64,000 nucleotides of DNA. It comes from a phage. The position numbers and the translations under genes are program-made. The stretch lies in the sequence record PV357171.2. One strand, written 5' to 3'. The notes below the pieces were generated by a model that did no database searches, was not told the origin of the DNA, and saw only the letters and a list, made by a program, of their open reading frames with translations. Positions 2,142 through 62,519 of this stretch are shown here, piece after piece. Numbering within the stretch: position 1 is the first letter of the stretch; every line of letters starts with the position of its first letter.

Positions 2142-5100
2142 ATGACTGATAAGCTAATACGAGAATTACTAATAGACGTTAAACAGAAGGGGGCAACCCG
2201 TACTGCAAAGTCTATTGAAAACGTATCTGATGCATTAGAGAACGCTGCTGCTGCTTCTGAACTAACAAATGAACAGTTAGGTAAAATGCCCAAAACTCTA
2301 TACTCCATTGAGAGGGCAGCAGATAGAGCAGCGAAAAGTCTTACTAAAATGCAAGCTAGCAGAGGTATGCTTAGTATTACTAAATCTATTAATGATATAG
2401 GAGCTAAGTTAGATGATCTCGCTATTACAATGATTGAAGTAGCAGATAAATTAGAAATCGGATTTGATGGAGTTTCTAGATCTGTTAAAACAATGGGCAA
2501 TGATGTTGCAGCTGCAACAGAGAAAGTTCAAGATAGGCTGTATGATACTAATAGAGCCTTAGGTGGTACAGCTAGAGGTTTTAATGATACTACTGGTGCC
2601 GCTGGTAGAGCTTCTAGAGCTATCGGTAATACCTCTGGCTCAGCACGCGGTGCAACTCGTGATTTCGCGGCAATGGCTAAGATAGGGGGTGGTTTACCTA
2701 TCCTGTATGCTGCAATTGCATCTAATATATTTGTTCTTCAGTCCGCTTTTGAGGGCCTAAAAGTAGGTGATCAATTAAACAGACTGGAACATTTTGGCAC
2801 TATCGTTGGGACTATAACGGGTACACCAGTACAGACGTTAGCTCTGGCACTACAAAACGCTACTAACGGTGCTGTATCCTTTGAAGAAGCTATGAGACAA
2901 GCGTCTTCTGCTTCAGCTTATGGATTTGATAGTAAACAATTAGAACAGTTCGGACTAGTAGCCCGTCGTGCTGCTGCTGTTCTTGGTGTTGACATGACCG
3001 ACGCACTTAACCGTGTAATTAAAGGCGTATCTAAGCAAGAAATAGAACTTCTAGACGAACTTGGTGTTACTATTCGCCTTAACGATGCGTATGCAAATTA
3101 TGTTAAACAGCTAAATGCTACCAGTACAGGCATTAAATATACTGTAGATAGCCTGACTACCTACCAGAGACAACAAGCATATGCAAATGAAGTTATAGCA
3201 GAATCTACTAGACGTTTCGGATACCTAGATGATGCTCTTAAGTCAACTTCTTGGGAGCTATTTGCTGCTAATGCTAACTCTGCCCTAAGAAGCCTACAAC
3301 AAAGCGCAGCAACATACTTAACCCCTGTTGTAGACACCATCAATGCTTTCTTATATCAAACTAAATCTTCTCAGATGAGGATTTCCGCAATGGCACGCAG
3401 TGCCTCTGCTAAAACCACTCCTACTGAAAATGTTACGGCTCTCATAGAAAACGCTGTAGGTGCACAAGAAGATCTAGATACTTACCTTAAAGAAAGTGAT
3501 GCTCGTGTTAAGAAAGCTCAAGAGATTAAACAGCAGTTAGATGATCTCAAGGCAAAACAAGCTGTTACTGCTCCAGTAGCTAACGCACTTACTGCTGTGG
3601 GCATTGGAGGCGATGAAAGTAATAAATTAGTAGTACAACTTACTAATGAACTGGCTCGTCAAAACCAAGAAATAGCAGAACGCGCTAAAACCGAAAAAGT
3701 TCTCAAACAAGCAGTGGAAGATACTGGGCAAGCCTTACTGCGTAATAGTAATCTAGCTAAGCAATTAGGAGCCAATATGCAGTATGCTGCCACTGCTATT
3801 CCTGGAGAGACCGGGGTATTTAAGATTGATCCTAATAATCTTAAAGCGGCTGCAGAGGTACAGAAGAACTATGACCAGCTAAAGAAAAGCTCTAGTGATA
3901 CTGCAAATAATATAAAAATGGCAGCTACTAACATTACCACTGCCAAAAAAGCATCAGGTGACTTAGTTAGCATTATAAAAGCAGTAGGAGATACTGCTAA
4001 GGTAACAGGGCAAAATACAGATACTCTAGTTAAAAATCTGAATCTAGGCTTTGAAAATCTAGATCAAATGAAGGCTGCGCAGAAAGGTCTATCAGAATAT
4101 GTAACTGCTATGGATAAGAATGAGCAGAATGCACTGGAAGTAGCTAAACGTAAAGACGAGGTTTATAACCAGACTAAAGACAAAGCTAAAGCGGAGGCAG
4201 CAGCTAGAGAGGTGCTACTACGTCAGCAACAGGAACAGCTCACAGCAGCAAAAGCACTACTGGCTGTTAATCCAAACGATCCAGAGGCTCTAAAGCAGGT
4301 AGCTAAGATAGAAACAGAGATTCTTAATACTAAAGCTCAGGGATTTGAGAACGCTAAGAAAACTAAAGATCTGACAGATAAAATTCTTGGTGTAGATCGT
4401 GAGATAGCTCTCCTGAATGACCGCACTATGACGAGTACTCAGTATCGTCTAGCACAATTAAGGCTAGAGCTACAATTAGAGCAGGAAAAAACGGAATTAT
4501 ATTCTAAACAAGCGGATGGCCAAGCTAAAGCAGAACAGTCTAGACGTGCCCAAGCACAAATAAGTAGAGAACTGTGGGAAGCAGAGAAACAAGCTACTGC
4601 CTCGCATGTGTCAGCTCTCATGGATGCCTTAGAAGTTAACCAAACTCAGAGAAATGTCACTGGTCAATCCCAGATTCTTACTGAAAGGTTATCCATTCTG
4701 CAACAACAGCTGGAGTTGTCTAAAGGTAATACTGAAGAAGAAATTAAATATCGTAATGAGATTTATAAAACTTCAGCAGCCTTAGAACAGCTTAAAAAGC
4801 AAAGAGAGAGTCAGATGCAGCAACAGGTAGGATCTTCATTAGGTGCTGTGTACACTCCTACAACTGGTCTATCTGGGGCAGATAAAGATTTTGCTGATAT
4901 GCAGAATAAGATGGCTTCTTATGACCAGGCTATTTCTAAGCTGTCTGAGTTAAATTCCGAAGCAACAGCTGTAGGTCAAAGCCTTGGTAATTTAACTAAT
5001 GCTATGATTCATTTCTCACGGGGATCTCTAGATACTACGTCTATGATTGCGGCAGGTATGCAAGCTGTATCTTCCGTAATTCAGTATAGTACTAGCCAGC

Positions 5101-5801
5101 AGGTAAGTGCTATTGATGCAGCTATTGCAGCAGAGCAAAAACGTGATGGTAAATCCGAGGAGTCTAAAGCTAAACTCAAGAAACTGGAAGCGGAAAAGGT
5201 TAAGATCCAGCAGGATGCAGCTAAGAAGCAAATCATTATTCAGACGGCAGTAGCAGTAATGCAAGCGGCAACAGCTGTACCATACCCGTTCTCTATTCCT
5301 TTGATGGTGGCGGCAGGTTTGGCAGGTGCGTTGTCTCTTGCTCAAGCATCTTCTGCATCGAGTATGTCAAGTATTGCTGATTCTGGAGCGGATACAACAA
5401 GTTATTTAACCTTAGGAGAGCGTCAAAAGAATATAGATGTGTCCATGTCTGCTAATGCAGGTGAACTATCTTATATCCGAGGCGATAAAGGAATAGGCGG
5501 TGCTAACTCTTTCGTTCCTCGTGCTGAGGGTGGTAATATGTACCCAGGGGTTAGTTACCAAATGGGTGAACATGGTACAGAAGTAGTTACCCCTATGGTT
5601 CCTATGAAAGCTACACCTAATGATGAGCTAAAAACCTCATCTAACTCAACTTCAGGAAGACCTATCATCTTGAATATTAGTGCTATGGATGCTGCAAGTT
5701 TCAGAGAGTTTGCTTCTAGTAATAGTAGTGCTCTAAGAGACGCAGTAGAATTAGCTCTGAATGAGAACGGTGCTAGTCTGAAAACATTAGGAAATTCTTA
5801 A
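2142..5801 (+). CDS. tail tape measure protein (pb2-like, 1219 aa)
   Basis: Very long Ala/Gln/Lys-rich coiled-coil ORF with hydrophobic segment and C-terminal Gly-rich region; length matches T5 pb2. Confidence 0.85.
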   Translation: MTDKLIRELLIDVKQKGATRTAKSIENVSDALENAAAASELTNEQLGKMPKTLYSIERAADRAAKSLTKMQASRGMLSITKSINDIGAKLDDLAITMIEVADKLEIGFDGVSRSVKTMGNDVAAATEKVQDRLYDTNRALGGTARGFNDTTGAAGRASRAIGNTSGSARGATRDFAAMAKIGGGLPILYAAIASNIFVLQSAFEGLKVGDQLNRLEHFGTIVGTITGTPVQTLALALQNATNGAVSFEEAMRQASSASAYGFDSKQLEQFGLVARRAAAVLGVDMTDALNRVIKGVSKQEIELLDELGVTIRLNDAYANYVKQLNATSTGIKYTVDSLTTYQRQQAYANEVIAESTRRFGYLDDALKSTSWELFAANANSALRSLQQSAATYLTPVVDTINAFLYQTKSSQMRISAMARSASAKTTPTENVTALIENAVGAQEDLDTYLKESDARVKKAQEIKQQLDDLKAKQAVTAPVANALTAVGIGGDESNKLVVQLTNELARQNQEIAERAKTEKVLKQAVEDTGQALLRNSNLAKQLGANMQYAATAIPGETGVFKIDPNNLKAAAEVQKNYDQLKKSSSDTANNIKMAATNITTAKKASGDLVSIIKAVGDTAKVTGQNTDTLVKNLNLGFENLDQMKAAQKGLSEYVTAMDKNEQNALEVAKRKDEVYNQTKDKAKAEAAAREVLLRQQQEQLTAAKALLAVNPNDPEALKQVAKIETEILNTKAQGFENAKKTKDLTDKILGVDREIALLNDRTMTSTQYRLAQLRLELQLEQEKTELYSKQADGQAKAEQSRRAQAQISRELWEAEKQATASHVSALMDALEVNQTQRNVTGQSQILTERLSILQQQLELSKGNTEEEIKYRNEIYKTSAALEQLKKQRESQMQQQVGSSLGAVYTPTTGLSGADKDFADMQNKMASYDQAISKLSELNSEATAVGQSLGNLTNAMIHFSRGSLDTTSMIAAGMQAVSSVIQYSTSQQVSAIDAAIAAEQKRDGKSEESKAKLKKLEAEKVKIQQDAAKKQIIIQTAVAVMQAATAVPYPFSIPLMVAAGLAGALSLAQASSASSMSSIADSGADTTSYLTLGERQKNIDVSMSANAGELSYIRGDKGIGGANSFVPRAEGGNMYPGVSYQMGEHGTEVVTPMVPMKATPNDELKTSSNSTSGRPIILNISAMDAASFREFASSNSSALRDAVELALNENGASLKTLGNS

Positions 5802-29596: not shown

Positions 29597-30364
29597 TTAT
29601 TCAGCAGCCGCAGCTTTTGCATCCAGTTTAGCACGCTTAGCGGCACCATCATAGTCCTTAGCAACCAGACCACGACGAGACAGCATAGATTTAACACCGC
29701 GCTCAGATTTACCAGTTTTCTCAGCGATCTCAGCAACAGTCATGTTAACCAGATCCAGACCTTCTAACAGATCTTCACGAGTTTTAGCACTCGAGGTTTC
29801 CTGTACCGGCATAGCGGCGATACGACCTTCACGAAGCAGACTCAGAGCTTTACCACGGATCTGCTTGATATTACGACCGAAGTGAGCAGCGATAGCTTCA
29901 ATAGTAGCACCAGCAACAACCTGATTAACAAAATCAGTTTCTTCATCCGGAGTGAAGGAACGAACAGCAGCAGCTTTTTCAGTTGGTTTAACAGAAGCGG
30001 TCATTTCCAGACTCAGGATCTTACCCTGTACCTGCTTAGCACCGAACTGACCACCAGCTACAGCAGCAGCGATTTCAGCATAGGTATACTGACCAGCATG
30101 AGCGTTCAGGAAATCAACCAGTTCAGCTTCCTGCTCAGGAGTCCACGGAGATTTCTGCACTTCGTTAGCTTTCTGTACTTCAAAACCTTCTTTACGCAGT
30201 TTAGAGCCAACAGAGCGGGCAGTAACATCTTTGCCAGTTTCAGCAGCCAGTTCAGCAGCAATAGCAGCTACTTGTTCTTGAGAGATTACAGCAACACCCA
30301 GAGCAGTGGCTTTTGCTTTCAGAGACTCGGTTACACCTTCTACGTTCCAGTTCAGTTTAGACAT
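29597..30364 (-). CDS. putative DNA-binding protein (D5-like position)
   Basis: 255-aa Ala/Lys-rich ORF with internally repeated helix-rich segments; call by synteny. Confidence 0.4.
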   Translation of the reverse strand: MSKLNWNVEGVTESLKAKATALGVAVISQEQVAAIAAELAAETGKDVTARSVGSKLRKEGFEVQKANEVQKSPWTPEQEAELVDFLNAHAGQYTYAEIAAAVAGGQFGAKQVQGKILSLEMTASVKPTEKAAAVRSFTPDEETDFVNQVVAGATIEAIAAHFGRNIKQIRGKALSLLREGRIAAMPVQETSSAKTREDLLEGLDLVNMTVAEIAEKTGKSERGVKSMLSRRGLVAKDYDGAAKRAKLDAKAAAAE

Positions 30365-31136
30365 TATTATTTTTCTCCAATAGTTCTTTAATCGACAGGA
30401 TTTCTATCCCATTCGTTTCGGCTTTCTTATAAGATGAGGAAGAACGTTTTGATTCATCCTCACAGATCAGGTATTTGACGTCTTTGGTAACGGATTTCTT
30501 AACCGTATATCCTAGACCTTCTAAATAGTTTGTTGCATCCGTTCTATTTGCAAAATCTTGCAAAGATCCGGTAATACATACCGTTATTCCGTTTGGTTGG
30601 GCTACTAGACCATCAGTGATGATGACCTCAGCTTTAGCACCTTTAATACCAGTTGTGAATTTCCACGGTAATTCGATAACATCCTTGCCTTGTGGGGAAT
30701 TTAGCCAGGCTTTATAATTTTCTCCAGCCTTGCCGTCAGCCTTCACATCATGGAAGCTAGTGCAATTTTGGGATAATTTCTTTGCTGCAACCTCTCCGAT
30801 TAGAGGGATTCCTAAAGAACCGAGAACTGAACCAAAGTCAATGTCTCCGCGAACTTTAGTATTTAATTCGCTAATTAACTTAGCGGCAACCTTGCTACCC
30901 ACGGCTCTAACCAAATCTTCTTCGGTTAGGTAAAATAGTTCTGAAATCTTCGTCAGCTCCAGCTTCTCAATAGTTTTTGGACCAAAGCCCTTTAACTTCA
31001 TTTTTGAACAGAAGTTCTCAATTAACTTACTTGATTGCGCTGGACAGTTGGACTTATTCCGACAAAATAATTGTCCGTTGACAAGATCTAGCTTAGAACC
31101 ACAAGAGGGACATTGTGTTGGAATTTCGATTTTCAT
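30357..31136 (-). CDS. NAD-dependent DNA ligase, C-terminal subunit (Zn-finger and HhH domains)
   Basis: CPSCGSKL...FCRN...C Zn-finger typical of LigA plus helix-hairpin-helix region; ATG at 31136 one codon inside the TTG of the ORF track. Confidence 0.7.
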   Translation of the reverse strand: MKIEIPTQCPSCGSKLDLVNGQLFCRNKSNCPAQSSKLIENFCSKMKLKGFGPKTIEKLELTKISELFYLTEEDLVRAVGSKVAAKLISELNTKVRGDIDFGSVLGSLGIPLIGEVAAKKLSQNCTSFHDVKADGKAGENYKAWLNSPQGKDVIELPWKFTTGIKGAKAEVIITDGLVAQPNGITVCITGSLQDFANRTDATNYLEGLGYTVKKSVTKDVKYLICEDESKRSSSSYKKAETNGIEILSIKELLEKNNNV

Positions 31137-31166
31137 CAAATTTCTTCCTTATCAATTTATATAAAT

Positions 31167-31340: not shown

Positions 31341-32315
31341 TTAATCGTATACTCGCTCTACTATGCACGGGATTACACCACCAGCACGAATCACTCGAAT
31401 CTGGCAACCGATCTCTAGATCAAGAGAGTTAATATAATCAACGTTATTAAGAGTCGCTTTAACAATTGTAGCGTCATCAATAATTACCGGTTCGAAATAT
31501 CCAACAGGAGTTACTTTACCAGAAGCCCCTACCTGCCACTCAACTTTGAGAAGAGTTGTAATTTCGCCTTCTTCATCTTGTTTAATTGCATAAGCACCGC
31601 GAGGATGTTTATTCGTCCAACCTTCACGGAAGAATTTATTGTTGTCATTAATACGAACAACTTTACCATCCGTTGGATACCAGTTGAAGTAGTTTTTAAT
31701 GTTCATTACAGTGATGAAATCTTCGTTAGCCAACCAAGACATATCATCTAAATAAGAACCTGTAATACCTACAGAATCTTCTGAACACTGAATACCATAA
31801 GCTACAAAGATTAATCCACCTTCCGCAATACGTTCGATGAAATCATCTTCTTCTTTTAAGTTAATAGCACCTGAAGCGTAGTTACGTTTGTTTTCTACTT
31901 CTTTAGTGATAAGAACTTCACCCGTGATTTGAGTTGGTACTTTTTGGGAAATCTTTTTCGGGATGTTCAGCAATCTAACGTTGCTTGTGACATCATTCCC
32001 TAGAATACCATTACCACGAGTTAACGCTTGAACAAACGTTCCGTCGATGTACAACAGAGAAATTGCGCAACCGTCTAGCTTATCAGTTTCTACGTCTTCA
32101 AGAGTAGTGAAGGGGGCTTTATCACCACGATCGAAGTAAACTTTTTGTAAAGAATACATACGATACAGATGTGGGATATCACCTTTCGGGCCGATAGCAT
32201 CTTCCGCCGTTGGGAAACGTTTTAACAGACGGTCATATTCTTCATCAGATATTAAAGACATACCCTGATAATATGCTTCTTGACAGCGTTTAATAAAGTC
32301 TTTTACATTAGTCAT
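31341..32315 (-). CDS. NAD-dependent DNA ligase, N-terminal adenylation/OB subunit
   Basis: KxDG adenylation motif (TDKLDGCAISL) and downstream nucleotidyltransferase motifs; ends with a stop before the Zn-finger part. Confidence 0.8.
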   Translation of the reverse strand: MTNVKDFIKRCQEAYYQGMSLISDEEYDRLLKRFPTAEDAIGPKGDIPHLYRMYSLQKVYFDRGDKAPFTTLEDVETDKLDGCAISLLYIDGTFVQALTRGNGILGNDVTSNVRLLNIPKKISQKVPTQITGEVLITKEVENKRNYASGAINLKEEDDFIERIAEGGLIFVAYGIQCSEDSVGITGSYLDDMSWLANEDFITVMNIKNYFNWYPTDGKVVRINDNNKFFREGWTNKHPRGAYAIKQDEEGEITTLLKVEWQVGASGKVTPVGYFEPVIIDDATIVKATLNNVDYINSLDLEIGCQIRVIRAGGVIPCIVERVYD

Positions 32316-38881: not shown

Positions 38882-39334
38882 TTACTGGATTGATTCCCTA
38901 CCGTATAATTGACCTCTAAACATCTTGGCCATAGAACATGCAACCTCATAGTTATCATATGTTCCTTTAACTATACGTTTACGGTTAATAGTAAATACTA
39001 CTTGCCAGTTCTTACTACCAGAAGGGTAAACATGCATTCCTTTCTTATACTTGATATTTCTTAGATTACCGGATACTGTCTGCTCTCTAAGATTTTCAAT
39101 ACGATCATCACCTTTTACAGTATTCACATGATCTACTAAATCAGGTAAGTATCCGTGATGCATTAAGAAGATAGCTCTGTGTCGGAGCATAGTTCTACTC
39201 CCTAGAGAAATACGGTAATAACCATTTCCCGTTGAAACACAACATTCCTTGCCTGCATTTCTTCCTGTAGTTCTAAATAATTTTCCATCTTCATATCGGA
39301 AATTATCTAAAAGTTCCTGTTGTGTGAGCGACAT
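38882..39334 (-). CDS. HNH homing endonuclease
   Basis: HNH motif (HRAIFLMHHGYLPDLVDHVN....DDRIENLRE); start at ATG 39334 after GGAGG. Confidence 0.65.
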   Translation of the reverse strand: MSLTQQELLDNFRYEDGKLFRTTGRNAGKECCVSTGNGYYRISLGSRTMLRHRAIFLMHHGYLPDLVDHVNTVKGDDRIENLREQTVSGNLRNIKYKKGMHVYPSGSKNWQVVFTINRKRIVKGTYDNYEVACSMAKMFRGQLYGRESIQ

Positions 39335-39473
39335 CTTTACCTCCAATACATATATTATTACATAATCCACCCAATTTGTCAATGACAATTTATTCATACT
39401 GTCAATTAACTGGAAAGATTATATAATAATCCGAGCCAAAATGACTCGGTAGTCAGAGTTCAGCTAATAAAAA

Positions 39474-39866
39474 TCATTCATCATTCAGACCTGGAACATA
39501 GATCCCAACATGGTTTAACTGTTCTTTAGCTTCTTTGAGAATATCTGGAGTGTACTCCCAAATATCATCTTCCACCTGTAAAAGATGGGGCGAACAACCA
39601 TCATCAGGCATACGACATATAGCCAAACCACGTGGATGGAACAAAGAGAAATTTAGGGCAACAATTAAACCCATAGCAGACAACTCATTCCAATCCAATT
39701 CCCATTCCCTAGCGTAGCCTGATAGGAAAACACCAATACAGGGATCGTCTATTTGCTGCTCCGGAAAAGTGAAGGAGGCTTGTCTTACCCCCAACCAACG
39801 TTGTAGCAGCTTCTCCGCACGCTTCACCAAACTAGGATCAATCTGACGCCAATATACTTGTTCCAT
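39474..39866 (-). CDS. hypothetical protein (paralog of adjacent ORF)
   Basis: Shares PCIG...W.EL.EMGL..ALN..LF.P block with 39876..40304. Confidence 0.45.
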   Translation of the reverse strand: MEQVYWRQIDPSLVKRAEKLLQRWLGVRQASFTFPEQQIDDPCIGVFLSGYAREWELDWNELSAMGLIVALNFSLFHPRGLAICRMPDDGCSPHLLQVEDDIWEYTPDILKEAKEQLNHVGIYVPGLNDE

Positions 39867-39875
39867 TCTGCCTCC

Positions 39876-40304
39876 TTAAGCAGTTAAATCTGGGATCATA
39901 TACCCGAAACGTCGAAGTTTCTGAATCCCCTCATTTACTTCTTCCGGTGAATAAGACCAACCATAACGTTCATTAACCTGAAAACCAGGAGATTCACTAG
40001 TTTTATAGTTAACAACTAGGCGATGCTTAGCAGGCATAAACAGCTTATAATTTAACGCAAAAACTAAGCCCATTTCATCTAACTCTTTCCAGCCTACAAT
40101 CTCTTCAAGACCCTCCTCTACCTGAACAATTAAACCAATACAGGGGGCCTCATCAATATCATCTTTAAAAGCAAAGGAGATTTCATTATTCTCACACCAT
40201 ATTTTCAAGGAGTTAATAGCCTCATTATACAGGCTAGCTGGGAGAGTACGCCAAAAGTTAATCAAAATTGGATTAGCTTCTTTAGAGAATACATTATTGA
40301 ACAT
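39876..40304 (-). CDS. hypothetical protein (paralog of adjacent ORF)
   Basis: Tandem paralog of 39474..39866. Confidence 0.45.
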   Translation of the reverse strand: MFNNVFSKEANPILINFWRTLPASLYNEAINSLKIWCENNEISFAFKDDIDEAPCIGLIVQVEEGLEEIVGWKELDEMGLVFALNYKLFMPAKHRLVVNYKTSESPGFQVNERYGWSYSPEEVNEGIQKLRRFGYMIPDLTA

Positions 40305-40306
40305 AT

Positions 40307-40813
40307 TTACACCTTAAATTGTTGTAAGGATTTACACATTTCAAGATCTGGGCTAAATTCTAGCATATAGCTAACAGCTTTTAAATCTTGAAGATTTATC
40401 CCAGTCCTACCGTTGACTATAACCGTTGGATACTGATACATCATAGCACCCGCATCATCAAGCACACACCAATGTTTGAGCTTATGCTTTTCAACGAAAC
40501 GAAGAACAGAATTACCCCTAGATAATCCACCCCCCGTAAAATCCGTTGTACCAAGAAAACGATCGATAAGACCTAATCCGGTCATAATCTGAACGTTCTC
40601 CATCTCATTTCTAACAGAGAACCAAGATGATACCCCAACAATCATTATCGGAGAAGGACGAATAAAATCCTGAAAAGCCTTGAGAAGCGGTTTGAAAACC
40701 CAGTCACTTCCAAAGAAAATCTTTTCATTATCAGGTGCATGATGGTGGGAGATGCTCGAATTGAGCACCCCATCAATATCTAGAAAAATAATTGGAGTAT
40801 TACTTATTTCCAT
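40307..40813 (-). CDS. HAD-superfamily phosphatase-like protein
   Basis: N-terminal motif I FLDIDGVLN (DxDGxL-type). Confidence 0.5.
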   Translation of the reverse strand: MEISNTPIIFLDIDGVLNSSISHHHAPDNEKIFFGSDWVFKPLLKAFQDFIRPSPIMIVGVSSWFSVRNEMENVQIMTGLGLIDRFLGTTDFTGGGLSRGNSVLRFVEKHKLKHWCVLDDAGAMMYQYPTVIVNGRTGINLQDLKAVSYMLEFSPDLEMCKSLQQFKV

Positions 40814-40982
40814 TTTTGTTCCTTTCTAAGAACGTATCATACTCAACCGTATCAACATATATGACGCCATAGTCATCGGATTTATAGTCCATTTCCCATA
40901 ACTCACATCGATAGCACCAACTACCATCTGCCCATACAAATATATCATCGGGATGTGTATATACAGATTTAACTATGGACAT
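40800..40982 (-). CDS. hypothetical protein
   Basis: 60-aa ORF overlapping neighbours. Confidence 0.3.
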   Translation of the reverse strand: MSIVKSVYTHPDDIFVWADGSWCYRCELWEMDYKSDDYGVIYVDTVEYDTFLERNKNGNK

Positions 40983-41805
40983 ATCTGTTTACCTTGCTTC
41001 TCGACACATAAGGTCTACCCTCTAAATGAGCTTCTACACGAGCAATAAAATCAGGATCACTGAAAGCATCTACCGCACCTTTACTCCAGTAAGGGATACC
41101 ACGTTCTTCCAGCTGGTACATCTCACTACGAGTCATACCTTGATAGCCCGGTTCTGCCGCTAGGCCACTATCATAGTAGTTAACAACCATAAGTTTCGCA
41201 GCAGTCAAATTAAGAACAGGAAATAATTCCCAGTAGAAGTTAATTACTTGGTTAGAGCAACCAACCACAATGATCATATCTTGACTGGTAATACCATCAA
41301 AAACATTATACATTTCTGCGTATGCAGGAGCATGTTCTCCAAAGAAGATTACATTAGGTTTAACCCATTTATAATCATCTGGATCAATAGAATTATACCC
41401 TACATCAATAATCCGTTTATTGCTACTATTGTAGCTATCAGCTACAACAACCTCTTTTAAATATCCGTGAATGTGCAGAATGTCACTATGTGGAACACCA
41501 GCACGCTCAATAAGGTCATCAACGTTGGTAGTCAAGTTTACTACTTGACCTGGGTATTGTTTATACCATTCACCAATACGCAAATGCGCAAGATTGGGTT
41601 CAACAGTTTTTAGCTCTTCACGACGCTTGTTGTAAAACATATGGGTTTTATGATAAAAATTACCACGAAAGGCATGAATATTACATACTTCTTCTAGATC
41701 ATAATCATCCCACAATGCTTTACCACTAGCAGTATCAGTACGGAAGGCTCGTACACCACTTTCAACGCTCAAACCTGCACCGCTAATAATAATTAATCTA
41801 CGCAC
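40969..41805 (-). CDS. Sir2-family (sirtuin-like) NAD-dependent protein
   Basis: GAGLSVESGVRAFR (sirtuin GAGIS..SGIP.FR), TTNVDDLIERAG, HIHG catalytic His, VIFFGE and VVGCS blocks; no Zn-ribbon cysteines. Confidence 0.65.
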   Translation of the reverse strand: MRRLIIISGAGLSVESGVRAFRTDTASGKALWDDYDLEEVCNIHAFRGNFYHKTHMFYNKRREELKTVEPNLAHLRIGEWYKQYPGQVVNLTTNVDDLIERAGVPHSDILHIHGYLKEVVVADSYNSSNKRIIDVGYNSIDPDDYKWVKPNVIFFGEHAPAYAEMYNVFDGITSQDMIIVVGCSNQVINFYWELFPVLNLTAAKLMVVNYYDSGLAAEPGYQGMTRSEMYQLEERGIPYWSKGAVDAFSDPDFIARVEAHLEGRPYVSRSKVNRYVHS

Positions 41806-41999
41806 TATACGATTCCTCGCTTAAATCCTTCGATAATATTTCGGAGTAAAATTGCTTCCTCCGGGCGTACCTTTTCTTGCTTAATAAGCATATCCAATCC
41901 AGCAATACAACTAGTTACACCAGCATTATAACCAGAGTTCCATTGCTCAATGAGCATGTTTTCTAGATTACTTTTTAGATTCTGATTCAAGAAGTCCAT
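41805..41999 (-). CDS. hypothetical protein
   Basis: 64-aa ORF. Confidence 0.3.
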   Translation of the reverse strand: MDFLNQNLKSNLENMLIEQWNSGYNAGVTSCIAGLDMLIKQEKVRPEEAILLRNIIEGFKRGIV

Positions 42000-42171
42000 A
42001 AAGTCTCTCCTCTAATTCCATAATACGATTTTCATAAGAGGCACGCAACTTTTCAATTGCCAGCGCACGCACTGTAACCTCATTAGAGTTAATAGCTAAT
42101 TGGGCCAGATCTTCTGTTTCCATACGTCCGTTGTAAATTAAGCGATATTTAAGATGTTTTACGTTTTTCAT
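41968..42171 (-). CDS. hypothetical protein
   Basis: 67-aa ORF. Confidence 0.3.
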   Translation of the reverse strand: MKNVKHLKYRLIYNGRMETEDLAQLAINSNEVTVRALAIEKLRASYENRIMELEERLYGLLESESKK

Positions 42172-42180
42172 TCTTGTTCC

Positions 42181-42462
42181 TTAGTTCTGTACTGTAAATT
42201 CATTCTTATCACAGTGAGCGTAATAATACCCATACATGCGATAAATTTTCACAGCCTTAGTAGACCCCTTCGATTCTTCATAATCAATCCAGAGCCACTT
42301 GTCTTTACCTACATAATGTACCCGAAACTTCTTAACTTTCTTATCATTCCATGTTGCAACAACACGACGATAATCAAATCCACCCAACCAATCTAGAGCC
42401 TTACGTTCTTCACTAGGCCCTCCAAGATGGGAGACATCTACTTTAGGAAGCAACTCGCTCAT
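42181..42462 (-). CDS. hypothetical protein
   Basis: 93-aa ORF with own promoter. Confidence 0.4.
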   Translation of the reverse strand: MSELLPKVDVSHLGGPSEERKALDWLGGFDYRRVVATWNDKKVKKFRVHYVGKDKWLWIDYEESKGSTKAVKIYRMYGYYYAHCDKNEFTVQN

Positions 42463-42520: not shown

Positions 42521-42553
42521 TAAAATAAAAGCCAGGTCGACTAGCAACCTGGC
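42521..42553 (-). terminator. rho-independent terminator after nrdD (minus strand)
   Basis: Stem GCCAGGT / ACCTGGC followed by T-rich run on minus strand. Confidence 0.55.
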
Positions 42554-42561
42554 TGATTAGC

Positions 42562-44388
42562 TTACTTAAGATTTAAGTGTTTTACTCTACCAAGTACTTC
42601 TTTTTGTTTCCCAGAATTGAAAGGCCTACTGCCCGGGGATCCCAGGTACCCGCAAACCCTACGTGTAACCTCTATTTCTTCAGATCCACAACTCGGACAT
42701 ACAAACCCACGTTCAGAGGCAACAGATTCACCCATATACCCACAGTTGAAGCACTCATCAATTGGTATATTAACACCAATATAATGACTACATTCTAGTC
42801 CCTTATCTACTACGTATTCAAGAGCTTTATGGAACTTTTTCATTTGTGGTAGTTCCACAAACGATATATTACCACCATTAGCTATTTTGGTGAAATGAGC
42901 TTCATACTCAAATTTAGTATCCGGAGCTACCTTCTCCCTTACGTCCAAATGATGACTATTAGTGAGATAGCCTTTATCTGTTAGCCAAGAATACTCAGGG
43001 AACCTACGTTCCAGTAGTTTATTAAAGCGATTACATAGAGACTCACTAGGAGTAGCATACAAGCTAAACCCAAGATTAGTCTCATTAGCTTTAACTTCGC
43101 AACGATTTTTTAGGTGAGTAAGAACTTCCTCTGTAAATTCAATACAGTCCCTATGAGTCTGCGGTAAACTAAACATTATTTGGCACATCTCATAGACCCC
43201 AATATACCCAAGAGATACAGAAGATCTACCCTCAAAAATTGGCCATACATACTCTTCCCTATCTAAACGCACACCAAAACCACCGTGCATATAAAGAATA
43301 GGGGCTTGTTTAGCCTTCACTTTCTTAAGTCTATCCAAGAAAAAATCATGAGCTTCAAAAGCCTCATCCACATATTTGTCCAGAATATCCCAGAAATCTT
43401 CAAAAACCCCATCTGCCTCAGCAGCAACCATAGGTAGATTAATAGACACTACACCTAAATTATTGCGCCCTGCAATTTCTCCGGAGGGGATAGCAGATAA
43501 AAAGCTACGACAACCCATAGGGGCTTTAAAATCACCAGTAACAGCTATAACTTTCTCATAGCTTAAATAGTCTGGGTACATACGGGTAGCAGAACACTCA
43601 AGTGCTAGCTGTTTTATATCATAGTTAGGATCGCCTGGATTTTTATTTAACCCTTCTTTAACTGAGAATACTAGTTTAGGGAAGATAGGGGTTGACTCGG
43701 CAGCACCTAAACCTTTAATACGATTTTGGAGGATGGCTTTCTGAATCATCCTTTCCTCCCACTCCTGACCTAATCCAAAGCCAAGCGTAACAAAAGGGGT
43801 CTGCCCGTTAGAGTTAAATAATGAATTAGTTTCATACTCTAGAGCTTGGAATGCATCATAACACTCTTTTTCAGTAAGCTCAGTAGCATACACAGCAGCT
43901 TTTCTTTCATCCTTGAGCCAACGTAGCCCACGACCCAGATGTTTATTGTAAGACTTTCTGACATACGGGGCTAGAACCTCGTCGATACGATCAATAGAGG
44001 TACCACCATACTGAGCACCAGATACTTGGGCAATAATCTGAGCAGTGATTGCACATGCAGTAGTTATGGATTTAGGAGTTTCAATATTTGCATTACCGAT
44101 TTTAGTACCATTCTTCAGCATGCCCCCCAGATCTACTAAACAACAGTTGGTGTACCCTTGTGCTCTGTAGTCCATGTCATGAATGTGTATTTTACCTAGA
44201 TTATGCGCGTCTAACAGGTGTTTAGGTAATTCTTGCGATACTAAATACTTGTTAATTTCCCCAGCTAATAAGTCCCTTTGAGTATGGAACATCTCACTAG
44301 GCTTATTAGCATTATTATGTTGTAAGTCTTTATCCGCAGTTAGAGTGAGCAGACCTTTGCAATTTTCAATTAATTCATTCTCTGTCAT
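42562..44388 (-). CDS. nrdD: anaerobic ribonucleoside-triphosphate reductase (class III)
   Basis: C-terminal CxxC...CxxC zinc site (CFNC...CPSC) and glycyl-radical motif RVCGYLGS. Confidence 0.8.
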   Translation of the reverse strand: MTENELIENCKGLLTLTADKDLQHNNANKPSEMFHTQRDLLAGEINKYLVSQELPKHLLDAHNLGKIHIHDMDYRAQGYTNCCLVDLGGMLKNGTKIGNANIETPKSITTACAITAQIIAQVSGAQYGGTSIDRIDEVLAPYVRKSYNKHLGRGLRWLKDERKAAVYATELTEKECYDAFQALEYETNSLFNSNGQTPFVTLGFGLGQEWEERMIQKAILQNRIKGLGAAESTPIFPKLVFSVKEGLNKNPGDPNYDIKQLALECSATRMYPDYLSYEKVIAVTGDFKAPMGCRSFLSAIPSGEIAGRNNLGVVSINLPMVAAEADGVFEDFWDILDKYVDEAFEAHDFFLDRLKKVKAKQAPILYMHGGFGVRLDREEYVWPIFEGRSSVSLGYIGVYEMCQIMFSLPQTHRDCIEFTEEVLTHLKNRCEVKANETNLGFSLYATPSESLCNRFNKLLERRFPEYSWLTDKGYLTNSHHLDVREKVAPDTKFEYEAHFTKIANGGNISFVELPQMKKFHKALEYVVDKGLECSHYIGVNIPIDECFNCGYMGESVASERGFVCPSCGSEEIEVTRRVCGYLGSPGSRPFNSGKQKEVLGRVKHLNLK

Positions 44389-45046
44389 TGATTATTTCCT
44401 CGATAAACCTTGCTACTATTTCTGGCTCAATACTAAAAAATTCTGTAGCACCATCAAAATCTTTGTACTGACAATTATATTCCTTAAACTGTAAATGGGC
44501 CTCTCTTTCAATACGCATAGCTTTTGATCTATCTGAAAAGCTATATTCCTTAAATATTTTTAAATCATGTATGTTAGAAGAAGTTTTAATATCTCTGAGT
44601 CTATCTTTAGTTCTGCTAGACACCCCTATTTTGGTTCCCACACTACTTATTAAAATATATACGTTAGTAGGATAATTATCCTTCTCTAATAAACATATAG
44701 GACAACCAGAATTATGATTTCTAACACTATCAAGTGTAGACTCCCATCTATGATTATTCTCACAGCTGAACATAATTTTACTCTTAGAATTGATGTATTT
44801 ACCTTCCATCTTTATTCCACGAGCAGCTAAGGATTCATTTACCTCTTTAAGATCTAAAGTACGACTAGCACAATAAGGGCAACCTCTCCCACCTTTTACA
44901 TTATCTACTCTAGCCTCCCAGATATGTCCATTAGAGCACTTAAATACAGCATTGGATTTAGCTGATATATACGTGCTTAGCATAATTATTCCTCTGGGAG
45001 CAAGTGTTAAGTTCACATCTTCTGTAGTTATTTTCTTTCTTACCAT
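44375..45046 (-). CDS. T5orf172/GIY-YIG-like domain protein with N-terminal duplicated zinc ribbons
   Basis: Two C..H...C..C repeats, then NVYILISSVGTKIGVS..R block resembling the T5orf172 (GIY-YIG superfamily) domain. Confidence 0.5.
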   Translation of the reverse strand: MVRKKITTEDVNLTLAPRGIIMLSTYISAKSNAVFKCSNGHIWEARVDNVKGGRGCPYCASRTLDLKEVNESLAARGIKMEGKYINSKSKIMFSCENNHRWESTLDSVRNHNSGCPICLLEKDNYPTNVYILISSVGTKIGVSSRTKDRLRDIKTSSNIHDLKIFKEYSFSDRSKAMRIEREAHLQFKEYNCQYKDFDGATEFFSIEPEIVARFIEEIINDRE

Positions 45047-60725: not shown

Positions 60726-60754
60726 TTGCTTGAATGCTAAATTCTCTGTATAAT
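60726..60754 (+). promoter_or_regulatory. early promoter
   Basis: TTGCTT, 17 bp, TATAATATATTTATAAATTTGAGAGAGG. Confidence 0.65.
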
Positions 60755-60784
60755 ATATTTATAAATTTGAGAGAGGAATCAAAT

Positions 60785-61840
60785 ATGATTAAGACTGGTC
60801 TAGTAATTGGTAAGTTCGCACCATTAACGCGTGGTCATATTAACCTAATAAACACAGCAGCAACTATGTGTGAACGAGTTATTGTTGTAGTTAGTCATGA
60901 TAATCGTTGGCTGGATAAGCAGAACACACGTGATCAGGAAGTATTACAGTTAAAGAATCGACTTCGTTGGTTAGAACAAACTTACGCGGATATTGAGCAC
61001 ATTTCGGTAGAGTACATTATTGAAGATGATATTCCTGAATATCCGAATGGTTGGCCGGAATATGCTAGAATCCTTAATGAAAATTACGGACATTTGCCTG
61101 AGATCACCGTTTTCTCTAGCGAACTAGACTATGATGCAGAATATAAGAAATATCTGCCGAAGTTTGGTCATTATATTGTAGATTCTGATCGGACTCGTGT
61201 TCCAATCTCAGCTACAATGATTCGTAATGATCTTATGAAGTATTGGGAGTTTCTTCCTAGCTTAGTTCGTAAAGATTACGTGCGTAAGGTTGTAATCATT
61301 GGGACTGAAAGCTCGGGAAAGACTACTTTAACAAAATACCTTGCGAAGCTATACAACACTTCGTGGGTAGAAGAATATGGCCGAACGTATTGTGAAGTTG
61401 ATCTAGTTGGTAACGAAAATCTACTTACCAGTGAAGATTACAGTAAAATTGCGTTCAGACACAAAGAGCTAGAGTTTGAAGCAGAACGTACTGCAAATAA
61501 GATCATGTTTGTGGATACAAATGCTTTTATTACTGAGTTCTACCACAGACTTTATGAACATAGTAAGAACCCTGTGGTTACAGCAATTGCAAAAGTAGAA
61601 CATTACGATTTAGTAATTGTTCTAGCGCCTACTGTCAAGTGGGTAGATGATGATTTACGTATTAACTCCGATCGTTCAATTACTTCTGAACTGTTCGAGC
61701 AGATGAAGAAAGAATTTCCAAATCAGTTCCCTGAAGGGCGTACTGTTTACATCGACTCTCCGGACTACAAAGTTCGTATGGACGAAGCAGTAAACGCAGT
61801 AGACTGGCTGATTCATCACTTTAACGTTGGAGAGTTTTAA
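60785..61840 (+). CDS. nadR: NadR-like bifunctional NMN adenylyltransferase / ribosylnicotinamide kinase
   Basis: N-terminal GKFAPLTRGH (nucleotidyltransferase H/T-x-G-H) and C-terminal P-loop IGTESSGKTTL; ATG at 60785 after GAGAGG. Confidence 0.6.
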   Translation: MIKTGLVIGKFAPLTRGHINLINTAATMCERVIVVVSHDNRWLDKQNTRDQEVLQLKNRLRWLEQTYADIEHISVEYIIEDDIPEYPNGWPEYARILNENYGHLPEITVFSSELDYDAEYKKYLPKFGHYIVDSDRTRVPISATMIRNDLMKYWEFLPSLVRKDYVRKVVIIGTESSGKTTLTKYLAKLYNTSWVEEYGRTYCEVDLVGNENLLTSEDYSKIAFRHKELEFEAERTANKIMFVDTNAFITEFYHRLYEHSKNPVVTAIAKVEHYDLVIVLAPTVKWVDDDLRINSDRSITSELFEQMKKEFPNQFPEGRTVYIDSPDYKVRMDEAVNAVDWLIHHFNVGEF

Positions 61841-61841
61841 T

Positions 61842-62519
61842 ATGACTAACTATCTCGTAAATGACTTTAAAAACTGGAAACCTCTGGAATATCTGTGGCT
61901 GCTCATAGCGGTTGTCTTCATTAGTTTAGCAAACTATAATGGTACAGCTCTAGATTGGGCTACTGCAATAACCAATGTGGTTTGTGTTATTCTGGTTGCA
62001 AAAGGACGTGTTTCCAACTATATTTGGGGCTTAGTGGGTGTTCTTACATATGGTATTACAGCTTTAAACGCAGATCTTTATGGTAACGCTGCACTAAACC
62101 TGCTATACTACGTTCCTATGCAGTTTTATGGAATGTACTTATGGCATAAAAATAAACCAAGTAATCTGCCAGACGTTCCAACTAAGGTTCTGACTAAAGC
62201 TCAGGCTTTATTAACTCTTGGGATTCTAGCAGTAGCTACTCTAGGCTATGGCAGCTTCCTCGCTACCACAGCAGATCCGTTCCCAATGCTCGATGCATTT
62301 ACTGCGGTTGGTAGTGTAATTGCTATGTGGCTTATGGTCAAGCAGTATGCTGAACAATGGCTAATCTGGATTGCCATTAATATTGGTACTGTATACATTT
62401 GGTTTGTAACTGCTCAGTCTACAGGTGCTTCTTATGCAATCCTAGCAATGTGGCTGGTATTCTTTGGTAACTCTGTACTTGGAGCCTATAAAGGGTACTT
62501 TGTACGCGTTAACAAATAA
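61842..62519 (+). CDS. pnuC: PnuC-like nicotinamide riboside transporter
   Basis: About 226 aa, multiple predicted TM helices, Trp-rich motifs; immediately after NadR-like gene; ATG at 61842 after GGAGAG. Confidence 0.55.
   Translation: MTNYLVNDFKNWKPLEYLWLLIAVVFISLANYNGTALDWATAITNVVCVILVAKGRVSNYIWGLVGVLTYGITALNADLYGNAALNLLYYVPMQFYGMYLWHKNKPSNLPDVPTKVLTKAQALLTLGILAVATLGYGSFLATTADPFPMLDAFTAVGSVIAMWLMVKQYAEQWLIWIAINIGTVYIWFVTAQSTGASYAILAMWLVFFGNSVLGAYKGYFVRVNK

Follow-up and report, generated by a model that had tools for sequence, protein, structure and literature searches.

The literature on phage sirtuins found in our searches consists of annotations, one modeling and transcript study, and one comparative-genomics prediction. 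The modeling study (Skliros et al. 2016, PMC5107563) described the Sir2/CobB proteins of the KVP40-type phages (KVP40, phiSt2, and phiGrn1), in which the zinc ligands are missing and the catalytic His residue and the acetyl-lysine tunnel are kept, listed T5 as carrying a Sir2/CobB gene, and proposed, from modeling and transcript data only, that the Vibrio-phage sirtuin activates acetyl-CoA synthetase. The comparative-genomics study (Iyer, Burroughs, Anantharaman, Aravind 2022, PMC9503650, section 3.7.3) put forward a distinct clade comprising most viral sirtuins, with a KptA-like role in RNA repair, and named the T5-like phage SP15 as representing the type that combines a sirtuin with a “Swiss-army-knife” HAD phosphatase. 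The sirtuin gene analyzed here lies in a 64,000-nucleotide stretch of phage DNA from sequence record PV357171.2 (referred to below as the window), which is a Tequintavirus (T5-like) genome. Its product is a true, intact member of the Sir2 family that is related to the bacterial deacylase CobB and has lost the zinc site. It belongs to the group described as the distinct clade of Iyer et al., as PHROG 2162, and as the T5 “Sir2-like protein,” has the SP15-type HAD neighborhood, and shows no material difference from that group; the window copy is one more allele of the known T5-like sirtuin. The gene, the family, the zinc-less state (2016), and the RNA-repair hypothesis (2022) are already known, whereas the mapping of the CobB pocket, the covariation of a Gln-to-Thr change with zinc loss, the relatives in Marinobacterium, the codeletion in phage DT57C, and the allele-cassette pattern are added here.

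The gene is as follows:

40969..41805, minus strand: Sir2-family coding sequence, 278 aa, GTG start (list of open reading frames [ORFs], Pfam, PHROG, CobB match, and AlphaFold2/Foldseek)

The initial annotation placed an ORF for a Sir2-family protein at these positions, where it is indeed present; the strand, not given there, is the minus strand. A GAGGA Shine-Dalgarno sequence is located 8 to 13 nt 5' of the GTG codon, which shares one base with the stop codon of the preceding ORF, and the choice of this start is supported by the MRRL N terminus that the sirtuin homologs have in common in the alignment. The 2 kb around the gene are 96 to 97.5% identical to Salmonella phage SP01 and Escherichia phage JLBYU40 (Tequintavirus, Demerecviridae) and match 446 phage records. 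In tblastn searches, the protein was found at ≥90% identity in 207 phage records among the matches listed, and lower-identity matches came from at least 1,000 records, from phages whose hosts include Escherichia, Salmonella, Klebsiella, Vibrio, and Erwinia; the labels “Sir2-like” or “NAD-dependent deacetylase” are already present in many of the matched records. The Tequintavirus genes in the viral-contig collection are 93 to 99% identical to that of the window.

The family assignment rests on profile and fold comparisons that agree with each other. The SIR2 profile of Pfam (PF02146) matches over positions 1 to 178 of its 180 with 88.2 bits (cut-off, 24 bits; E value of 8.2e-25), and phrog_2162, “Sir2 (NAD-dependent deacetylase),” matches with an E value of 4.6e-121; these searches point to Sir2, as proposed from the motifs in the initial annotation, and not to another Rossmann family. 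The nearest relative of known structure in sequence searches is CobB of Escherichia coli (1s5p; E value of 1.9e-17, ∼25% identity), followed by Sir2Af1/Af2, SIRT5, Sir2Tm, SIRT3, and SIRT2. The structure prediction and comparison suggested as a check gave a confident AlphaFold2 model (predicted local distance difference test score [pLDDT] of 87.6, predicted template modeling score [pTM] of 0.86) with the two-domain sirtuin fold, for which CobB 1s5p was the top Foldseek match in the Protein Data Bank (E value of 2e-17, template modeling [TM] score of 0.84 by target length, 264 aligned columns), with Sir2Af1 and SIRT5 next in order; the best 50 fold matches were all sirtuins.

The functional sites of the protein map to the following segments:

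41740..41781, minus strand: NAD-binding loop GAGLSVESGVRAFR, residues 9 to 22, with F21 (CobB F60) and R22, aligned to CobB GAGISAESGIRTFR
41620..41634, minus strand: Y58-N-K-R61-R62, the class III sirtuin YxxR motif (CobB Y92/R95), aligned to CobB FYNARRR
41518..41532, minus strand: T92-T93-N94-V95-D96, the TQNxD motif with Gln replaced by Thr, aligned to CobB TQNID
41464..41469, minus strand: H113-G114, the catalytic histidine (CobB H147; codon CAC at 41469-41467), aligned to CobB HMHG
41350..41463, minus strand: cysteine-free small-domain beta module of residues 115 to 152 that replaces the Cys4 zinc ribbon (alignment and AlphaFold2)

All five sequence blocks quoted in the initial annotation were recovered in the protein, with GAGLSVESGVRAFR at residues 9 to 22, TTNVDDL at residues 92 to 98, HIHG at residues 111 to 114, VIFFGE at residues 152 to 157, and VVGCS at residues 180 to 184; the catalytic His and Asn, the loss of either of which was to speak against a sirtuin, are present as His113 and Asn94. 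The Rossmann GAGxS loop with its Phe/Arg pair is represented by GAGLS (residues 9 to 13), F21, and R22, and the nicotinamide-pocket residues N94 and D96 align to CobB N130 and D132. Residue conservation was scored over 28 phage homologs with 55 to 86% identity to the window sirtuin, in all of which the residues G9, A10, G11, S13, S16, G17, F21, R22, W32, C41, Y58, R61, and R62 are invariant, as are T93, N94, V95, D96, H113, G114, V152, F154, F155, and E157 and, in the C-terminal half, G182, S184, V187, I188, F190, and N209. The sirtuin thus shares with CobB, Sir2Af1, and SIRT5 the Pfam family, the GAGxS, F/R, NxD, HG, and FGE motifs, and the YxxR motif.

The acyl-lysine pocket of CobB could be followed residue by residue. 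Published CobB numbers were obtained by adding 25 to the index of chain 6rxj, which was verified on the A76G and I131C mutant chains. Residues F60, W67, A76, Y92, R95, I131, and V187 of CobB belong to its active site or cofactor loop (Spinck et al., 10.1101/723684); in the alignment, F60, W67, A76, Y92, R95, I131, V187, and H147 correspond to F21, W32, C41, Y58, R61, V95, V152, and H113 of the phage protein. Six of these eight positions are identical and two conservatively replaced, and all eight are invariant in the 28 phage homologs, so the acyl-pocket positions studied in CobB carry the same or conservative residues in the phage sirtuin. The alignment of Y58 and R61 to CobB Y92 and R95 is of particular relevance to the acyl preference, as CobB needs both Y92 and R95 for desuccinylation and R95 for de-2-hydroxyisobutyrylation (PMC6636992). 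Apart from the low identity and scores below the NCBIfam cut-offs (see below), the phage sirtuin differs from CobB in being phage encoded and linked to a HAD_SAK_2 gene and in the features specific for its clade, namely, the Gln-to-Thr change in TQNxD, the loss of the zinc ligands (no Cys4 set), and a C-terminal extension of 60 to 70 residues that contains a further insert in the T5 subgroup. Judging from the residues at these sites, we hold with moderate confidence that the protein is a catalytically competent, zinc-less sirtuin of the CobB-like class III type.

Because all catalytic and acyl-lysine-pocket residues of CobB have invariant counterparts across the phage clade, the favored reading, put forward at about an even level of belief, is that the protein would be a NAD-dependent lysine deacylase with targets possibly in the RNA-damage response or the NAD economy of the infected cell. 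The best matches in both sequence and fold (CobB, Sir2Af1, and SIRT5) are deacylases, which also counts for this reading. Drawing on the homology, fold, and residue conservation observed, together with the gene context and the dispensability, the following scheme predicts the enzymatic activity, the acyl preference, and the substrates. NAD+ would be held in the Rossmann domain by GAGLS (residues 9 to 13), F21/R22, and N94/D96, and the acyl-lysine (amide) substrate would enter the hydrophobic tunnel formed by F21, W32, C41, V95, V152, and F155. The carbonyl oxygen of the substrate would then attack C1' of the nicotinamide ribose, with departure of nicotinamide, and His113 would activate the ribose hydroxyl, yielding free lysine and O-acyl-ADP-ribose. 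With its invariant pair of Y58 and R61, the enzyme may, like CobB, accept acidic or polar acyl groups (such as succinyl and 2-hydroxyisobutyryl) besides acetyl. The enzyme would provide an early accessory function, cotranscribed with the HAD_SAK_2 phosphatase, and its targets would probably lie within, or regulate, the RNA/tRNA damage response and the NAD economy of the infected cell. Should this be correct, T5-like phages and many other virulent enterobacterial phages import a protein-deacylation enzyme of their own, and lysine acylation would represent a layer of host takeover that has so far been unstudied in phage biology.

The loss of the zinc site, also recognized in the initial annotation as the absence of the four-Cys ribbon, is complete: the protein has only two cysteines, C41 and C183, with none at residues 114 to 152, and a Cys4 set in the small domain is found in none of the 28 aligned homologs. 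In its place, AlphaFold2 predicts three strands (E114-122, E131-134, and E147-152). As an intact family member, the protein shows that the zinc site is dispensable for a sirtuin. Among 1.84 billion representative proteins, 5,810 relatives were identified by a profile search, of which the best 150 were taken and 145 could be scored for both the zinc and the TQNxD traits. At the column of the TQNxD Gln, 45 of the 145 carry Thr and 86 carry Gln; 35 of the 45 “T” proteins have zero or one small-domain Cys, whereas at least four are found in 75 of the 86 “Q” proteins, so the Thr-for-Gln change is associated with zinc loss among these relatives. The YxxR motif is retained in both groups. The replacement of the VxP substrate-loop proline by Asn189 was considered as a sign of changed substrate and rejected, as this column varies equally with and without zinc among the 145 relatives.

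Zinc-less sirtuins of the same TTN type, with 38 to 46% identity to the phage protein, are also encoded on the chromosomes of many Marinobacterium species (loci L066 to L086), which may be the cellular source or the sink of the phage clade. In the scanned Marinobacterium loci, the sirtuin neighbors include an ELFV-type amino-acid dehydrogenase, an SNF sodium symporter, and 2-oxoacid:ferredoxin oxidoreductases, with no RNA-repair genes among them. The presence of such relatives among ordinary metabolic genes indicates that the zinc-less TTN variant is compatible with a housekeeping sirtuin role.

Several observations weigh against the deacylase reading. The protein does not reach the status of a CobB equivalog in NCBIfam (NF040867, NF001755, and related models), with the best scores being 99.7 bits against a cut-off of 243 and 89.6 against 320. 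The zinc site, absent here, is known as a structural requirement of the characterized sirtuins, and the Gln of the (T/S)QNxD motif is Thr93 throughout the clade. No candidate protein substrate was identified, and the literature searched holds no biochemical or genetic experiment on any phage sirtuin. Finally, the recurrent genomic partners of the gene are RNA-end-processing enzymes and not protein-modification or metabolic genes. The residue-level and the gene-context evidence pull in different directions; here, most weight is placed on the residue level. As to the three roles listed for the gene in the initial annotation (host-takeover factor, anti-defense decoy, and protein-modifying enzyme), the conservation of the active site favors the last one, while the invariance of all catalytic residues makes a decoy unlikely.

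In the window, the sirtuin gene is part of a block of eight codirectional ORFs, tightly packed or overlapping, in the order three small ORFs, Sir2, a 60-aa ORF, HAD_SAK_2 phosphatase, and two DUF7415 paralogs:

42530..42554, minus strand: terminator-like hairpin that follows nrdD and bounds the block on its upstream side (pattern match; 10-bp stem, 6 GC pairs, T run)
41805..42462, minus strand: three small 5' ORFs (42181-42462, 41968-42171, and 41805-41999) matching PHROGs 7953, 5236, and 5827, no known function
40800..40982, minus strand: 60-aa ORF between Sir2 and the phosphatase (PHROG 5116, E value of 6e-30), overlapping both neighbors by 14 nt
40307..40813, minus strand: HAD phosphatase of the “Swiss Army Knife” RNA-repair type (PF18143 HAD_SAK_2, E value of 7.4e-20; motif I FLDIDGV)
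39474..40304, minus strand: two DUF7415 paralogs (39876-40304 and 39474-39866) that end the block
39431..39449, minus strand: terminator-like hairpin that follows the second DUF7415 gene and bounds the block on its downstream side (pattern match; 8-bp stem, 5 GC pairs)

The three small ORFs upstream of the sirtuin gene have no Pfam match, and a promoter scan of the block found no more sites than in shuffled sequence. The 60-aa ORF accompanies Sir2 in most T5-like loci. The HAD_SAK_2 gene, which is two genes downstream of the sirtuin in the same block, is present in 473 phage records; neither this context, the most informative one for the gene, nor the long-standing Sir2 annotation figured in the initial annotation.

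The gene context was scanned in 58 viral-contig loci holding sirtuin relatives. The order Sir2, HAD_SAK_2, and two DUF7415 genes, with or without the 60-aa ORF, was shared by all 23 Tequintavirus loci and by four loci of the Epseptimavirus type; with a looser version of it in locus L036, this makes 28 Demerecviridae loci in all. In the fifteen loci of the rV5, 4MG, and Erwinia types, the Sir2 gene (48 to 63% identity) adjoins the genes for an ATP-dependent DNA ligase and a MazG-like protein; a T4-type RNA ligase 1 (Rnl1) is encoded in 13 of them (10 of these 13 with a cREC “cyclic-phosphate processing” domain), an AAA_33 kinase in 14, and a calcineurin-like phosphoesterase nearby in 14. The sirtuin orthologs that share the Rnl1/cREC/kinase setting have 57 to 63% identity. 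A HAD_SAK_2 gene (E value of 4e-21) was also detected 2.4 kb from a 46%-identical zinc-less homolog on a viral contig (L060) on which no other genes of the T5 block were found, and on a 608-kb jumbo contig (L063, positions 3582 to 4805) a zinc-type sirtuin has a T4-type Rnl1 gene, 1.2 kb away, and an arginase-family gene on its upstream side. Such recurrence beside enzymes that heal and seal RNA ends, in unrelated phage backbones, is probably not accidental. On a 120-kb viral contig (L061, positions 4057 to 5493), a NAMPT gene is located directly upstream of a zinc-less sirtuin; since NAMPT recycles nicotinamide, a sirtuin product, this arrangement counts in favor of the deacylase reading.

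Other contexts are less informative. In ∼150-kb phages, and likewise in one Vibrio schizoT4-like phage, DUF7275/DUF7277 proteins are encoded 2 to 3 kb upstream of the sirtuin (L039, L041, L042, L049, L051, L055, and L004). Pfam searches of the ∼150-kb-phage neighborhood returned DUF7275/DUF7277 and a cytosine methylase only, giving no functional lead, and the four conserved genes between DUF7275/DUF7277 and the sirtuin had no Pfam match. The sirtuins of Vibrio schizoT4-like phages have 36 to 41% identity to the window sirtuin and are likewise zinc-less; unlike the T5-like loci, the Vibrio-phage locus examined has no recognizable RNA-repair neighbor.

Escherichia phage DT57C (NC_027356; L005, positions 2480 to 2752) carries two deletions relative to window positions 40416 to 41961. 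The first removed Sir2 residues 1 to 164, and the second removed the Sir2 C terminus along with the 60-aa ORF and the N-terminal, catalytic portion of the HAD protein, leaving a 90-aa fusion ORF annotated as “sir2 (defective).” In DT571/2, a close relative of DT57C, the Sir2 gene is intact. The double deletion indicates that the Sir2-HAD pair is not needed for laboratory growth. Between the window and the Epseptimavirus-type loci (L044 to L047), the upstream flank genes are 89 to 99% and the HAD genes 90% identical, whereas the identity drops to 51 to 52% for Sir2 and 57 to 65% for the 60-aa ORF. This divergence hotspot suggests cassette exchange or diversifying selection. Given that Sir2 diverges in an otherwise uniform block, two old sirtuin alleles circulate, and both of them keep every catalytic residue.

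The database entry phrog_18062, labeled “Sir2 (NAD-dependent deacetylase),” aligns with the last 92 residues of the HAD_SAK_2 phosphatase at an E value of 6e-58 and with the real Sir2 protein only at residues 169 to 215, at an E value of 3.8e-6. It looks as if this entry was built from truncated and Sir2-HAD fusion ORFs, such as that of DT57C, and its mislabeling probably explains the two adjacent “Sir2” genes in many RefSeq phage records. For annotation, this means that the neighboring phosphatase is widely mislabeled as “Sir2”; the sirtuin gene itself is real and its name is correct at the family level, with “NAD-dependent deacetylase” being a predicted activity.

The gene contexts described above, which independently reproduce the published ones, underlie a different explanation, proposed by Iyer et al., in which the sirtuin would be a functional analog of the RNA 2'-phosphotransferase Tpt1/KptA; we regard it as the main, though less probable, alternative. 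The 2'-phosphate of a broken or religated RNA would attack C1' of NAD+, releasing nicotinamide; His113 would activate the ribose 2''-OH, which would attack the phosphate; and the RNA would be left with a 2'-OH, with release of ADP-ribose 1'',2''-cyclic phosphate. Together with HAD_SAK_2, the sirtuin would heal the ends of tRNA or mRNA cut by host metal-independent nucleases. The proposal is supported by the presence of HAD_SAK_2 two genes downstream, in an overlapping codirectional block, in every Tequintavirus and Epseptimavirus-type locus sampled, by its recurrence near a zinc-less homolog outside the T5 block (L060), by the association of Sir2 with Rnl1, cREC, and the AAA_33 kinase, with calcineurin-like phosphoesterase and MazG genes nearby, in the rV5-, 4MG-, and Erwinia-type phages, by the closeness of Rnl1 to the sirtuin on the jumbo contig (L063), and by the joint loss of Sir2 and HAD in DT57C. 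The locus also has the traits of the RNA-repair-linked clade, namely, RNA-end-processing neighbors, which are HAD_SAK phosphatases in the T5/SP15 type, and the absence of a macrodomain.

At the level of the protein, the invariant Y58, R61, and R62 could serve equally well to bind a phosphate or a carboxylate, and the first steps of sirtuin and Tpt1 chemistry would be formally analogous. However, the residues of the hydrophobic acyl-lysine tunnel of CobB are kept and invariant, not swapped for polar or basic ones, and the comparison of the pocket with that of CobB by alignment revealed no added basic residues. Tpt1 has a different fold with a phosphate-binding Arg/His cluster, and no equivalent cluster has been gained by the phage sirtuin relative to CobB. 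The phage clade is acidic, with isoelectric points of 4.6 to 5.8 (a crude proxy for surface charge), which is considered atypical for RNA-binding enzymes. The conservation of the active site argues mildly against action on an RNA 2'-phosphate. The likeness to Tpt1/KptA lies in the use of NAD+ as an ADP-ribosyl donor, the release of nicotinamide, and the accompanying RNA ligase, kinase, and phosphoesterase genes, and it is a functional analogy only (PMC9503650), as there is no sequence similarity (Pfam matched SIR2 alone) and the best 50 fold matches are sirtuins.

The gene context, too, is not uniformly in favor of RNA phosphate removal. No RNA ligase was detected in the Sir2 block (Pfam and PHROG) or among its annotated neighbors, and for the repair of breaks the T5-type set seems to be incomplete; in about one-third of the contexts outside T5 (among them the DUF7275/7277 block, the Vibrio schizoT4 type, and Marinobacterium), no RNA-repair gene is recognizable; and accessory nucleic-acid genes cluster in phage early regions anyway. 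The literature searched contains no sirtuin reported to act on the phosphate of RNA, and we know of no demonstrated sirtuin with a physiological role in nucleic-acid repair. In its more general form, the explanation is that the phage sirtuin, as a NAD+-using RNA-repair enzyme that does not act on proteins, clears a blocking group jointly with HAD_SAK_2 and so undoes the tRNA-targeting immunity of the host, which is doubtful although worth keeping in view. The blocking group could be a 2'-phosphate or, more speculatively, an amide lesion like the N-acetyl group that GNAT toxins place on aminoacyl-tRNA. If this explanation holds, sirtuin chemistry extends to nucleic acids, and T5-like phages would have, in addition to tRNA genes of their own, an enzyme with which to counter tRNA-cutting defenses.

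It is distinctly unlikely that the sirtuin is a mono-ADP-ribosyltransferase that modifies a host or phage protein, or a nucleic-acid end, in the course of takeover, similarly to SirTM and some activities of SIRT4 and SIRT6. In the SirTM enzymes, the catalytic His, which drives deacylation, is replaced, whereas the phage sirtuin retains it. SirTM is also macrodomain linked, and neither a macrodomain nor any other ADP-ribose-removing partner was found by Pfam and PHROG among the eight genes of the block. The residues for NAD binding and nicotinamide release are intact, as this reaction would require, and the Gln-to-Thr change in TQNxD and the loss of zinc could shift the reaction outcome, but the CobB equivalent of the invariant F21 is described as shielding the intermediate from side reactions (10.1101/723684). 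Phage takeover by ADP-ribosylation has a precedent in Alt, ModA, and ModB of T4 (PMC9503650).

The window carries several other genes for the use or rebuilding of NAD+:

60734-61840, plus strand: NadR-like NMN adenylyltransferase/ribosylnicotinamide kinase (Pfam, PHROG)
61827-62519, plus strand: PnuC-like transporter (Pfam, PHROG)
31341-32315 (A) and 30357-31139 (B), minus strand: split NAD-dependent DNA ligase (NCBIfam LigA, E values of 2e-51 and 1e-31)

The NadR-like/PnuC pair and the NAD ligase were mentioned in the initial annotation as residing in the same genome, and all three could be located. The pair corresponds to the NARP3 NAD-rebuilding pathway, published in 2026 (PMC13464706). The ligase ORFs A and B are ∼200 bp apart and are annotated as subunits A and B in JLBYU40. 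A dedicated module of NadR/PnuC with Sir2 was considered and rejected: the pair is located 19 kb from the Sir2 block on the opposite strand and is found in about half as many records as the Sir2-HAD block (at ≥80% identity, NadR in ∼207 phage records versus ∼438 for the HAD partner). The link of Sir2 to NadR/PnuC is loose, a point missed in the initial annotation. With a sirtuin, a NAD-dependent ligase, and NadR/PnuC, T5-like phages are heavy users and rebuilders of NAD+.

Least probable is a NAD+ glycohydrolase or an anti-defense decoy (sponge) that depletes NAD+ or destroys NAD-derived immune signals: Sir2 domains are indeed NADases in Thoeris, DSR, and Sir2-HerA (PMC10973363, PMC9503650), the 51 to 52% identity of Sir2 between flanks of 89 to 99% is a pattern common at host-virus interfaces, and the module is dispensable, but the nearest relatives are deacylases and not defense effectors, a phage that relies on NAD+ for its own ligase and carries a NAD-rebuilding pair would only lose by wasting it, and invariance of all catalytic residues would not be required of a decoy. 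The emphasis of the initial annotation on NAD-consuming effectors of bacterial defense is likewise not borne out by the canonical PF02146, CobB/SIRT5-like character of the protein; a defense-type SIR2 was rejected, as PADLOC returned nothing and Pfam returned only PF02146, with no SIR2_2 match, at E values of ≤1. The defense SIR2 effectors (ThsA, DSR1/2, Sir2-HerA, and SPARSA) belong distantly to the same superfamily and lack the zinc ribbon, too, but they are SIR2_2-type NADases fused to or paired with sensors, whereas the phage sirtuin is a stand-alone protein of 278 aa encoded in an early block. It has no sensor fusion or partner gene of the SLOG, HerA, Argonaute, or TIR kind, its neighbors being the small ORFs, HAD_SAK_2, and DUF7415.

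Two further ORFs lie close to the sirtuin block. An HNH endonuclease gene (window positions 38882 to 39397, minus strand; PF13392, E value of 3e-11) is located between the Sir2 block and the gene for the replication-origin-binding helicase. A 223-aa ORF with repeated CPxC motifs (window positions 44375 to 45046, minus strand) overlaps the start of nrdD by 14 nt, and its motifs suggest that it may be another homing-endonuclease-like insertion.

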